A stretch of 64,000 nt of DNA, from NCBI RefSeq assembly GCF_048403405.1, contig NZ_CP183129.1; one strand, given 5' to 3'. Origin of the DNA: Escherichia coli (lineage in GTDB: Bacteria; Pseudomonadota; Gammaproteobacteria; Enterobacterales; Enterobacteriaceae). Of the stretch, positions 27,368 through 49,320 are shown piece after piece. The translations under genes and the position numbers were made by a program. Below the pieces are notes generated by a model. The model was not told where the DNA came from and did not search any database. It was given only the letters and a program-made list of their open reading frames with translations. Each line of letters begins with the position of its first letter. Position 1 is the stretch's first letter.

Positions 27368-27922
27368 ATGATGTCTCAGCCAGCGAAAGTTTTGCTGCTG
27401 TATGCCCATCCGGAATCTCAGGACTCGGTGGCAAACCGGGTACTGCTTAAACCGGCCACGCAGCTCAGCAATGTTACCGTGCACGACCTTTACGCGCACT
27501 ATCCCGATTTTTTTATTGATATCCCCCGTGAGCAGGCATTACTGCGCGAGCACGAGGTGATTGTCTTTCAGCATCCTCTTTATACCTATAGCTGCCCGGC
27601 GCTACTGAAAGAGTGGCTGGACCGGGTATTAAGCCGTGGTTTTGCCAGCGGGCCGGGAGGAAACCAACTGGCGGGAAAGTACTGGCGTAGCGTGATTACC
27701 ACCGGCGAGCCGGAAAGTGCTTACCGTTATGACGCCTTGAATCGCTACCCGATGAGCGATGTTCTGCGCCCCTTTGAACTAGCGGCGGGCATGTGCCGGA
27801 TGCATTGGTTGAGTCCCATCATTATTTACTGGGCGAGACGGCAAAGCGCACAGGAGCTGGCGAGTCACGCCAGAGCCTACGGTGACTGGCTGGCAAATCC
27901 GCTGTCTCCAGGAGGCCGCTGA
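27368..27922 (+). CDS. kefG: KefB ancillary flavodoxin-like protein
   Basis: 184 aa; stop overlaps kefB start (tgATGg). Confidence 0.9.
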
Positions 27923-29727
27923 TGGAAGGTTCCGATTTTTTACTCGCAGGAGTGTTGTTTCTCTTCGCGGCGGTGGCTGCGGTGCCGCTGGCATCGCGGC
28001 TGGGTATTGGCGCTGTGTTGGGATATTTGCTGGCAGGGATTGCAATTGGCCCGTGGGGGCTGGGTTTTATTAGCGACGTCGATGAGATCCTCCACTTTTC
28101 GGAACTCGGCGTGGTGTTCCTGATGTTTATCATCGGCCTGGAGTTGAATCCCTCCAAGCTTTGGCAATTGCGGCGTTCGATTTTTGGCGTAGGTGCGGCA
28201 CAGGTGCTGTTAAGCGCGGCGTTGCTGGCGGGATTATTGATGCTGACGGATTTCGCCTGGCAGGCGGCGGTGGTCGGTGGCATTGGCCTTGCGATGTCTT
28301 CAACTGCAATGGCGTTGCAATTGATGCGTGAGAAAGGGATGAATCGCAGCGAATCCGGGCAGTTAGGTTTCTCGGTACTGCTGTTTCAGGATCTGGCGGT
28401 GATCCCGGCACTGGCGTTAGTGCCGTTGTTGGCGGGTTCGGCAGACGAACATTTCGACTGGATGAAGATCGGCATGAAGGTGCTGGCGTTTGTCGGCATG
28501 CTGATTGGCGGGCGCTATTTACTGCGTCCGGTATTCCGTTTTATTGCAGCTTCTGGTGTGCGGGAAGTGTTCACCGCCGCGACGCTGCTGCTGGTGTTGG
28601 GTTCCGCATTGTTTATGGATGCGCTGGGGCTGTCGATGGCGCTCGGTACGTTTATTGCGGGCGTGCTGCTGGCGGAAAGTGAATATCGTCATGAACTGGA
28701 AACGGCTATCGATCCCTTCAAAGGCTTGCTGCTCGGTTTGTTCTTTATCTCTGTCGGCATGTCACTCAACCTCGGGGTGCTTTATACCCATCTGTTGTGG
28801 GTAGTGATAGCTGTGGTTGTGCTGGTGGCGGTGAAAATTCTCGTGCTGTATCTGCTGGCGCGATTGTATGGCGTGCGTAGCTCAGAGCGGATGCAGTTTG
28901 CTGGCGTGTTGAGTCAGGGCGGTGAGTTTGCCTTTGTGCTCTTTTCTACCGCTTCTTCACAACGCTTATTCCATGGCGACCAGATGGCGCTGTTACTGGT
29001 GACGGTGACGCTTTCCATGATGACCACGCCGCTGCTGATGAAGCTGGTAGATAAATGGCTATCCCGCCAGTTTAACGGACCGGAAGAAGAAGTCGAAAAA
29101 CCGTGGGTCAACGATGATAAACCGCAGGTCATTGTCGTGGGCTTTGGGCGTTTTGGTCAGGTGATTGGTCGCTTGCTGATGGCAAATAAAATGCGCATTA
29201 CTGTGCTGGAGCGGGATATCAGCGCCGTTAACCTGATGCGCAAATATGGCTACAAAGTTTATTACGGCGACGCCACGCAGGTCGATCTGTTACGTTCTGC
29301 GGGTGCAGAGGCCGCTGAGTCTATCGTCATTACCTGTAACGAGCCGGAAGACACCATGAAACTGGTGGAAATATGCCAGCAGCACTTTCCGCATTTGCAT
29401 ATTCTTGCGCGAGCGCGCGGACGTGTGGAAGCGCATGAGTTATTACAGGCAGGGGTGACGCAGTTTTCCCGTGAAACATTCTCCAGTGCGTTAGAGCTGG
29501 GGCGCAAGACGCTGGTCACGCTTGGCATGCATCCGCATCAGGCACAGCGGGCGCAACTGCATTTTCGCCGCCTGGATATGCGGATGCTGCGAGAGCTCAT
29601 CCCAATGCATGCCGATACCGTACAAATTTCTCGCGCCAGGGAAGCCCGACGCGAACTGGAAGAGATTTTCCAGCGTGAAATGCAACAAGAACGACGCCAG
29701 CTGGACGGCTGGGATGAATTTGAGTAG
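27922..29727 (+). CDS. kefB: glutathione-regulated K+ efflux system protein
   Basis: 601 aa; membrane domain plus C-terminal Rossmann-like regulatory domain. Confidence 0.95.
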
Positions 29728-30031: not shown

Positions 30032-30622
30032 ATGAAAGTAGCAAAAGACCTGGTGGTCAGCCTGGCCTATCAGGTACGTACAGAAGACGGTGTGTTGGTT
30101 GATGAGTCTCCGGTGAGTGCGCCGCTGGACTACCTGCATGGTCACGGTTCCCTGATCTCTGGCCTGGAAACGGCGCTGGAAGGTCACGAAGTTGGCGACA
30201 AATTTGATGTCGCTGTTGGCGCGAACGACGCTTACGGTCAGTACGACGAAAACCTGGTGCAACGCGTTCCTAAAGACGTATTTATGGGCGTTGATGAACT
30301 GCAGGTAGGTATGCGTTTCCTGGCTGAAACTGACCAGGGTCCGGTACCGGTTGAAATCACTGCGGTTGAAGACGATCACGTCGTGGTTGATGGTAACCAC
30401 ATGCTGGCCGGTCAGAACCTGAAATTCAACGTTGAAGTTGTGGCGATTCGCGAAGCGACTGAAGAAGAACTGGCTCATGGCCACGTTCACGGTGCGCACG
30501 ATCATCACCACGATCACGACCACGACGGTTGCTGCGGTGGTCATGGCCACGATCACGGTCATGAACACGGTGGCGAAGGCTGCTGCGGCGGTAAAGGTAA
30601 CGGCGGTTGCGGTTGCCACTAA
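30032..30622 (+). CDS. slyD: FKBP-type peptidyl-prolyl isomerase / metallochaperone
   Basis: 196 aa with His/Cys-rich C-terminal tail. Confidence 0.95.
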   Translation: MKVAKDLVVSLAYQVRTEDGVLVDESPVSAPLDYLHGHGSLISGLETALEGHEVGDKFDVAVGANDAYGQYDENLVQRVPKDVFMGVDELQVGMRFLAETDQGPVPVEITAVEDDHVVVDGNHMLAGQNLKFNVEVVAIREATEEELAHGHVHGAHDHHHDHDHDGCCGGHGHDHGHEHGGEGCCGGKGNGGCGCH

Positions 30623-30639
30623 TACCGAAAAAGTGACAA

Positions 30640-30667
30640 AAAAGCGGGGGAATCCCCGCTTTTTTTA
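30640..30667. terminator. bidirectional terminator between slyD and slyX
   Basis: Hairpin aaaagcgggg-aat-ccccgcttttt flanked by A- and T-runs. Confidence 0.55.
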
Positions 30668-30671
30668 CGCC

Positions 30672-30890
30672 TCAATAATGTGGCGGTGGCGTTTCTTCAG
30701 CCTGCGACGCGATGTTCGACGGCTGGCTGGCTTTTAGCTTCTCGGTCAGCAGACGCAGATGATCGCGCAGTTTCGCCATCTCCATTTCATGAGCGGTCAC
30801 CGTGACGTTCAGTTCTTCAATGGTGATTTCCTGAAAAGCCAGTCGGCTCTCCAGCTCTGCCAGGCGTGCTTCCAATGATAAATCCTGCAT
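30672..30890 (-). CDS. slyX: SlyX protein
   Basis: 72 aa coiled-coil-like ORF. Confidence 0.85.
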
Positions 30891-31110: not shown

Positions 31111-31925
31111 ATGAAATCACTGTTTAAAGTAACGCTGCTGGGGCGACCACAATGGCCGTTGCCCTGCATGCACCGATCACTTTTGCTGCTGAAGCTGCAA
31201 AACCTGCTACAACTGCTGACAGCAAAGCAGCGTTCAAAAATGACGATCAGAAATCAGCTTATGCACTGGGTGCTTCGCTGGGTCGTTACATGGAAAACTC
31301 TCTTAAAGAACAAGAAAAACTGGGCATCAAACTGGATAAAGATCAGCTGATCGCTGGTGTTCAGGATGCATTTGCTGATAAGAGCAAACTCTCCGACCAA
31401 GAGATCGAACAGACACTGCAAGCATTCGAAGCTCGCGTGAAGTCTTCTGCTCAGGCGAAGATGGAAAAAGACGCGGCAGATAACGAAGCGAAAGGTAAAG
31501 AGTACCGCGAGAAATTTGCCAAAGAGAAAGGTGTGAAAACCTCTTCAACTGGTCTGGTTTATCAGGTAGTCGAAGCCGGTAAAGGCGAAGCACCGAAAGA
31601 CAGCGATACTGTTGTCGTGAACTACAAAGGTACGCTGATCGACGGTAAAGAGTTCGACAACTCTTACACCCGTGGTGAACCGCTCTCTTTCCGTCTGGAC
31701 GGTGTTATTCCGGGTTGGACAGAAGGTCTGAAGAACATCAAGAAAGGCGGTAAGATCAAACTGGTTATTCCACCAGAACTGGCTTACGGCAAAGCGGGTG
31801 TTCCGGGGATCCCACCGAATTCTACCCTGGTGTTTGACGTAGAGCTGCTGGATGTGAAACCAGCGCCGAAGGCTGATGCAAAGCCGGAAGCTGATGCGAA
31901 AGCCGCAGATTCTGCTAAAAAATAA
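31111..31925 (+). pseudogene. fkpA: periplasmic FKBP-type PPIase FkpA, reading frame broken in the signal-peptide region
   Basis: MKSLFKVTLL in frame 1 from 31111; rest of protein (MAVALHAPITFAAEAAK..., 257 aa) in another frame from 31152; junction is GGGG run 31140-31143. Confidence 0.7.
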
Positions 31926-39978: not shown

Positions 39979-40467
<489 letters not shown>

Positions 40468-40487
40468 TCAGGTCATTGAGCGATTGA

Positions 40488-42883
<2,396 letters not shown>

Positions 42884-42896
42884 TTTTAGAGGATAA

Positions 42897-43178
<282 letters not shown>

Positions 43179-43183
43179 GGTAG

Positions 43184-45112
<1,929 letters not shown>

Positions 45113-45136
45113 TACAGTACGCTCTCTCGATACGAA

Positions 45137-45168
45137 TAAACGGCTCAGAAATGAGCCGTTTATTTTTC
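45137..45168 (+). terminator. S10 operon terminator
   Basis: Hairpin aacggctca-gaaa-tgagccgtt followed by a T-run. Confidence 0.65.
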
Positions 45169-46526
<1,358 letters not shown>

Positions 46527-46537
46527 GGTAGGGTTAC

Positions 46538-46846
<309 letters not shown>

Positions 46847-46873
46847 TTGTCACCAATTGAATCACGGGAGTAA

Positions 46874-48181
<1,308 letters not shown>

Positions 48182-48186
48182 GGTAG

Positions 48187-49320
<1,134 letters not shown>

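Follow-up and report, generated by a model that had tools for sequence, protein, structure and literature searches.

The intact His/Cys-rich metal-binding tail at the 3′ end of a chromosomal slyD gene of Escherichia coli

Main Finding

SlyD is a chaperone and FKBP-type prolyl isomerase of the cytoplasm. We are almost certain that the feature analyzed here corresponds to the 3′ end of slyD on the E. coli chromosome and encodes the intact and canonical 51-residue C-terminal tail of this protein. The feature lies within a 64-kb stretch of E. coli DNA, the whole of which is called the window in the following. The gene is intact and its product identical to the reference protein, the composition of the tail is extreme, the tail peptide is under purifying selection and its motifs are conserved across genera. 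As such, the slyD tail in the window is an ordinary and already known one. Its relevance comes from the nickel supply to [NiFe]-hydrogenase maturation (PMC7055735) and from its role in the contamination of IMAC preparations. The positions of all features are collected in Table 1.

Table 1. Features in and around slyD, with positions counted from the first letter of the window
Feature	Position	Strand	Basis
kefB	27922-29727		neighbour of slyD
yheV, DUF2387 zinc ribbon, 66 aa	29737-29937	+	Pfam
slyD coding sequence, 196 codons and TAA stop	30032..30622	+	ORF list, PDB, NCBIfam
Folded part of SlyD, residues 1-145: FKBP prolyl-isomerase and inserted-in-flap (IF) chaperone domain	30032..30466	+	Pfam, tail-less structures
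C-terminal metal-binding tail, residues 146-196	30467..30619	+	composition, binomial test, literature
HGHVH motif (His149, His151, His153), conserved single high-affinity metal site at tail start	30476..30490	+	alignment, PMC7055735
Imperfect 12/6-bp tandem array (CACGATCACCAC) encoding HDHHHDHDHD	30497..30526	+	Tandem Repeats Finder
11-bp direct repeat pair CCACGATCACG, 39 bp apart	30508-30518 and 30547-30557	+	repeat list, pairwise alignment
First Cys-Cys pair (C167, C168), within DGCCGGHGHD	30530..30535	+	translation
Second Cys-Cys pair (C184, C185)	30581..30586	+	translation
GGCGCH C-terminal motif (C193, C195, H196)	30603..30619	+	repeat list, alignment
Spurious antisense ORF, 199 aa, in phase with slyD codons	30020..30619	-	ORF list
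Spurious +1-frame ORF, 101 aa, Thr/Ala/Val-rich, overlapping tail and terminator	30432..30737	+	ORF list
Intrinsic terminator hairpin, flanked by A-run and T-run, between convergent slyD (+) and slyX (-)	30638..30665		terminator scan
slyX, convergent with slyD	30672-30890	-	Pfam SlyX
fkpA	31152-31925		beyond slyX

Identity and Integrity of slyD

The original prediction assigned the gene to slyD and described its His/Cys-rich metal-binding tail as intact, and both statements hold. The ORF translates into a protein of 196 aa with the C-terminal end ...ELAHGHVHGAHDHHHDHDHDGCCGGHGHDHGHEHGGEGCCGGKGNGGCGCH*, and a comparison with full-length E. coli SlyD from PDB entry 2KFW_A revealed identity at 196 of 196 positions (E = 3.5e-131). 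Identity to the window protein also extends to two truncated constructs, 2K8I (residues 1-166) and 8G01_D (residues 1-154). The NCBIfam equivalog model for SlyD (NF008008) is matched from end to end, all 196 profile positions being covered by residues 1-196, with a score of 426.8 bits at a cut-off of 174, and an exact-sequence look-up in a collection of 15 billion proteins returned SLYD_ECOLI, which occurs on at least 1000 contigs. At the level of annotation, RefSeq labels the same stretch slyD in 5,425 E. coli genomes, and strain 7/2 (NZ_CP023820.1) carries an allele that is nucleotide-identical to that of the window over the 669-bp query.

The domain assignment of SlyD into FKBP, IF and tail follows the literature (PMC7055735, PMC11198818). 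A Pfam FKBP_C match (PF00254) covers residues 4-78 with 35.6 bits (cut-off 21.1), and its end at residue 78 is what would be expected of an FKBP domain interrupted by the IF domain. The presence of the IF chaperone domain itself is evident from the 100% identity to 2K8I (1-166) and 8G01_D (1-154), both of which contain it.

With regard to the borders of the tail, the proposed span of 30445-30622 includes the TAA stop codon (30620-30622), of which position 30622 is the last base. The start was placed too early: position 30445, the third base in codon 138, precedes the metal-rich stretch by about 8-11 codons. The span thereby takes in IREATEEELA, residues from the end of the folded FKBP domain and from the linker, and the peptide quoted as evidence for the tail begins at His149 (30476). 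This peptide, ...EEELAHGHVHGAHDHHHDHDHDGCCGGHGHDHGHEHGGEGCCGGKGNGGCGCH, is indeed the C-terminal sequence of the SlyD product, and its presence in the plus-strand ORF confirms the translation.

We found nothing that contradicts the reading as intact SlyD, the region 30032-30622 being without frameshift, premature stop or any amino acid that differs from SLYD_ECOLI. A pseudogene or a truncated slyD is ruled out by the full identity to the reference protein.

The allele of the window was also compared with those of four other lineages, and slyD of the K-12-derived strain Origami2 differs from it at 9 nucleotides, BL21 at 10, Nissle 1917 at 12 and ST540 at 14. All four encode a protein with one common accession, WP_000861334.1.

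Composition and Motifs of the Tail

Of the 51 residues of the tail, 16 are Gly, 15 His, 6 Cys, 5 Asp and 3 Glu. The prediction that about the last 50 residues are dominated by H, D, G and C was therefore borne out: these four account for 42 of 51 positions (82%), whereas their share in 30 further long ORFs from the window is 16.4%. The binomial P for this difference is 6.7e-25, and for His and Cys taken singly it is 2.3e-12 and 2.2e-5, respectively. In addition, the sum of His and Cys is 21, and a search in all six frames of the 64-kb window identified the tail as the sole stop-free stretch of 51 residues with more than 14 of them.

Within this composition several motifs stand out. H149, G150, H151, V152, H153 and G154 (HGHVHG) are invariant in 22 of 22 aligned Enterobacterales sequences, the motif DGCCGGH around the first Cys-Cys pair is common to most of the aligned genera, and GGCGCH at the C-terminus is also kept in most genera of the alignment. 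The 8-mer TGCTGCGG occurs at both 30530 and 30581. A tail rich in His, Cys, Asp and Glu in combination with HGHxH is a trait of the SlyD subtype of gamma- and epsilonproteobacteria, and it is present in the SlyD of the window.

Tail Length Within Escherichia coli

Tail length was predicted to vary between strains, and an alignment of slyD 3′ ends was proposed as a check. This turned out to be correct only insofar as rare alleles change the length in frame to 183, 194 or 201 aa; within E. coli the 3′ end is nearly invariant, and substantial variation in length is found between genera. In detail, slyD was found in 5,425 of 5,426 complete E. coli genomes, and we surveyed the length with a 220-nt query across the tail in 60 records taken at even steps down the ranking of these 5,425. 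The span of the query was exactly 220 bp in 59 of the 60 sampled genomes, the exception being NZ_LR536431.1. Over the tail just 36 of the 5,425 records fall below 95% identity, into the band of 90-95%, and 668 complete genomes show an identity to the window of at least 99%. As side observations of the survey, one of the 5,426 complete genomes is without a slyD match and one match is located on a plasmid-labelled record.

The three length alleles could be traced to defined changes. The 183-aa allele, which among complete genomes is restricted to NZ_LR536431.1 (slyD of 552 bp), arises by an in-frame deletion of 39 bp between the two copies of the 11-bp repeat and lacks D163-H175 including the first Cys-Cys pair. 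The 201-aa allele carries a tandem duplication of 15 bp (30506-30520, encoding HHDHD) within the tandem array, for which Tandem Repeats Finder reported a period of 12, 2.4 copies and 88% matches. A constructed sequence with this duplication matches strain MB10, whose slyD is annotated with 606 bp, at 235 of 235 bases; at most 6 complete genomes have this allele, so that it accounts for at most 6 of the 36 records under 95% tail identity. In the 194-aa allele (P0124, ending in ...GNGGCH) one copy of the tandem GCGGTT at 30603 and 30609 (30603-30614) is lost by a deletion of 6 bp; with a query deleted in this way, a 194-aa allele on a K-12-like background would score 97.3%, the same as an undeleted window-like allele. 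In the collection of 15 billion proteins the numbers of contigs are 174 for the 183-aa, 103 for the 201-aa and 34 for the 194-aa form, compared with at least 1000 for the canonical one.

Because each of the length variants sits at a short direct repeat, we assume that the in-frame alleles originate from replication slippage at these repeats and stay rare. An adaptive role, in which the 183-, 194- and 201-aa alleles would tune nickel storage or the release of nickel from HypB in certain lineages or niches, seems quite unlikely to us. We also consider it very improbable that the tail represents a hypervariable locus of the contingency type, with a length that differs routinely among E. coli strains. 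Such an interpretation could draw on the tandem array and on direct repeats of 8-11 bp in the tail DNA, as well as on the fact that each of the three in-frame alleles is found at one such repeat, but the repeats are short and imperfect and unlike true contingency tracts. Frequent length polymorphism within the species was not found, as 59 of the 60 evenly sampled genomes have the canonical span, the 39-bp deletion is confined to one and the 15-bp duplication to at most 6 complete genomes, and so few of the 5,425 records fall below 95% tail identity. Furthermore, strains as distant as K-12, BL21, Nissle, ST540 and that of the window share an identical protein of 196 aa. Rare slippage in an otherwise stable tail is the reading we prefer.

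Open Reading Frames in Other Frames

The low-complexity coding sequence of the tail had also been held responsible for a long spurious ORF on the opposite strand. We agree that this ORF is spurious, but the tail is not its cause, as the ORF covers all 196 codons of slyD and depends on codon bias. The antisense frame is open because the whole of slyD is free of TTA, CTA and TCA, the sole sense codons that give stops in this antisense phase. All Leu codons of slyD are CTG (13) or TTG (1), and 13 of the 14 Leu codons together with all five Ser codons are located in the folded part, residues 1-145. Tail composition explains just its own quarter of the antisense ORF, and the rest is due to the strong codon bias of the gene. 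We infer that the in-phase antisense ORF as a whole is a by-product of slyD codon usage.

That the 199-aa ORF is a genuine overlapping gene appears extremely improbable to us. Its length could be taken as an argument in favor, as could the fact that the same frame is also open in Salmonella and in a Klebsiella-type slyD, and the chance of an open antisense frame, given the amino-acid sequence of SlyD and the average codon usage of the window, is about 0.08. However, TTA, CTA and TCA are likewise absent from 5 of 51 long ORFs of the window, and 13 antisense ORFs of 107-351 aa are found on the minus strand opposite the plus-strand ribosomal-protein operons (40400-48800). The latter served as a control and show that genes with biased codon usage commonly face long antisense ORFs in this window. 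Four of the 13 were tested (41990-43045, 45222-45761, 46862-47419 and 47504-48127) and none has a Pfam match. The antisense peptide of slyD is itself without a match in Pfam or NCBIfam, and its predicted sequence is of low complexity and rich in Val, Thr, Ala and Phe. Further evidence comes from the lineage differences, all of which are silent in SlyD: the antisense peptide is altered by 9 of 9, 14 of 14, 11 of 12 and 10 of 10 of them, or 44 of 45 in sum, whereas purifying selection acting on this frame would have led to the reverse pattern. Finally, a Yersinia-type slyD carries TTA as codon 22, which interrupts the frame. A real antisense gene was rejected on the basis of the substitution pattern, the missing family match and this interruption, and we retain the by-product of codon usage as explanation.

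The ORF in the +1 frame yielded a Pfam hit to TAF1C_beta-prop, which we dismissed as chance, since it reached 22 bits and stayed below the gathering threshold of 27.1 on low-complexity sequence. A database entry of 214 aa labelled "SlyD" from E. coli (P0012) is frameshifted and reads into this same frame. Through the low-complexity DNA of its tail and its codon bias, slyD gives rise to spurious ORFs in other frames, and these can lead gene callers astray.

Selection on the Tail Peptide

Within the 51 codons of the tail, each of the four lineages has 5-7 of its nucleotide differences from the window, and all of them are synonymous. Together with the motif conservation across Enterobacterales, this substitution pattern shows that the peptide is constrained and not junk low-complexity sequence. 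The notion that the stretch rich in His, Gly and Cys is an unselected low-complexity accident at the end of the gene with no specific function has practically no chance of being right: low-complexity disordered tails are often poorly conserved, sequence and length of the tail vary among genera and many SlyD orthologues have no tail at all (PMC11198818), but none of the 5-7 tail differences among E. coli lineages alters an amino acid, HGHVHG shows no variation across Enterobacterales while DGCCGGH and GGCGCH are found widely among them, and the tail-deficient SlyD155 fails to activate [NiFe]-hydrogenase in vivo (PMC7055735).

As a separate observation, relative to K-12 and BL21 the 51 tail codons carry 6-7 synonymous differences, a higher density than that of the 3 in the 145 codons of the folded part, and the differences behind this contrast between 30467-30619 and 30032-30466 are all C/T exchanges at third positions. 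It is possible that relaxed codon selection, a mutational bias or a recombination tract led to this accumulation.

Gene Neighborhood and Terminator

The gene order kefB-yheV-slyD-slyX(-)-fkpA of the window is the same in RefSeq E. coli and is also found in Klebsiella-type, Yersinia-type and Salmonella loci. Directly upstream of slyD, yheV encodes two Cys pairs (CPAC...CVKC) and is kept beside slyD in these three loci outside E. coli as well, so that a second small putative metal-binding protein adjoins the gene of the metallochaperone.

For the G+C-rich hairpin downstream of slyD the terminator scan reported a stem of 12 pairs with 6 G-C pairs, and the RNA fold of the region 30623-30675 has an energy of -21 kcal/mol (z = -4.26 versus shuffled sequences). 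Because the A and T runs on both sides are symmetric, the hairpin probably serves as a shared bidirectional terminator for slyD and slyX. A promoter scan returned sites no more numerous than in shuffled sequence and none upstream of slyD. An Rfam scan of the whole window found nothing at or near slyD, and no tRNA genes were found in the window. The only Rfam match in the window is Alpha_RBS (RF00140, 50875-50986 on the plus strand, 102.7 bits), the known translational operator of the alpha ribosomal-protein operon.

Function of the Tail

The discovery of slyD goes back to its role as a host factor in phiX174 E-mediated lysis, and zinc and other transition metals are bound by E. coli SlyD in addition to nickel. 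Because the protein is identical, the published biochemistry should transfer to the SlyD of the window, and metal binding and the role in hydrogenase activation are presumed here from work on the identical 196-aa protein. According to these studies the C-terminal tail of E. coli SlyD is unstructured and binds nickel (PMC7055735, PMC11198818). It chelates several Ni(II) ions via the side chains of His, Cys, Asp and Glu, with up to 7 Ni(II) per protein bound at sub-micromolar affinity in sites of mixed geometry, and metal binding reversibly inhibits the prolyl isomerase (PMC7055735). The binding of Ni(II) by residues 146-196 is documented in ITC, XAS and MS studies. SlyD forms a complex with HypB, and both the stimulated release of nickel from HypB and the activation of [NiFe]-hydrogenase in vivo depend on the tail (PMC7055735). 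In line with this, the variant SlyD155, which keeps only His149, His151 and His153 of the tail, binds one Ni and does not activate hydrogenase (PMC7055735). According to the published work, the tail acts as a reservoir and source of nickel and stimulates its release from HypB while nickel is inserted into the large subunits of [NiFe]-hydrogenases.

The same tail makes SlyD a notorious contaminant in IMAC purification of His-tagged proteins, which is why strains such as LOBSTR have a mutated SlyD (PMC13397214).

Comparison With Known Systems

The closest relative is E. coli SlyD as already described (SLYD_ECOLI; PDB 2KFW, 2K8I and 8G01/8G02, the latter comprising residues 1-154), which is the same protein encoded in the same gene order. 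The slyD of K-12 shows synonymous differences only, 9 in 588 nt, with 6 of them in tail codons. Among the matches listed, the length of SlyD in Enterobacterales ranges from about 171 to 210 aa, with 196 aa in Salmonella, 198 in Citrobacter, 192-197 in Klebsiella, 190-202 in Serratia, 193-197 in Yersinia and 182-184 in Erwinia. The folded parts of these proteins are 84-97% identical. As in E. coli, their tails retain HGHVHG at the start and, in most cases, a central DGCCGGHGHD and the terminal GGCGCH, whereas the numbers of His-Asp or His-Glu repeats and of CC pairs and the overall length differ. The tail has been described as variable among SlyD proteins (PMC7055735), which agrees with the variation between genera found here.

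At larger distance, SlyD of Thermus thermophilus (PDB 3CGM and related entries, E = 7.4e-36) and of Helicobacter pylori (PDB 2KR7, E = 5.5e-21) show the same architecture of FKBP and IF domains. The T. thermophilus protein has the HGHxH site in common with E. coli and binds Ni or Zn with its HGHXaaH, but it has no extended His/Cys tail and takes up one metal ion (PMC7055735). The tail of H. pylori SlyD binds about 2.4 Ni or 3.3 Zn, compared with up to 7 Ni in E. coli (PMC7055735).

The His-stretches of HypB from Bradyrhizobium and Rhizobium, the tail of UreE from Klebsiella aerogenes and Hpn of H. pylori are analogous to the SlyD tail but belong to unrelated proteins. These segments are also His-rich and disordered, bind multiple Ni and feed the maturation of Ni enzymes (PMC7055735). 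There is, however, a functional difference between two of these systems, since urease can mature without the tail of UreE, whereas the activation of hydrogenase requires that of SlyD (PMC7055735).
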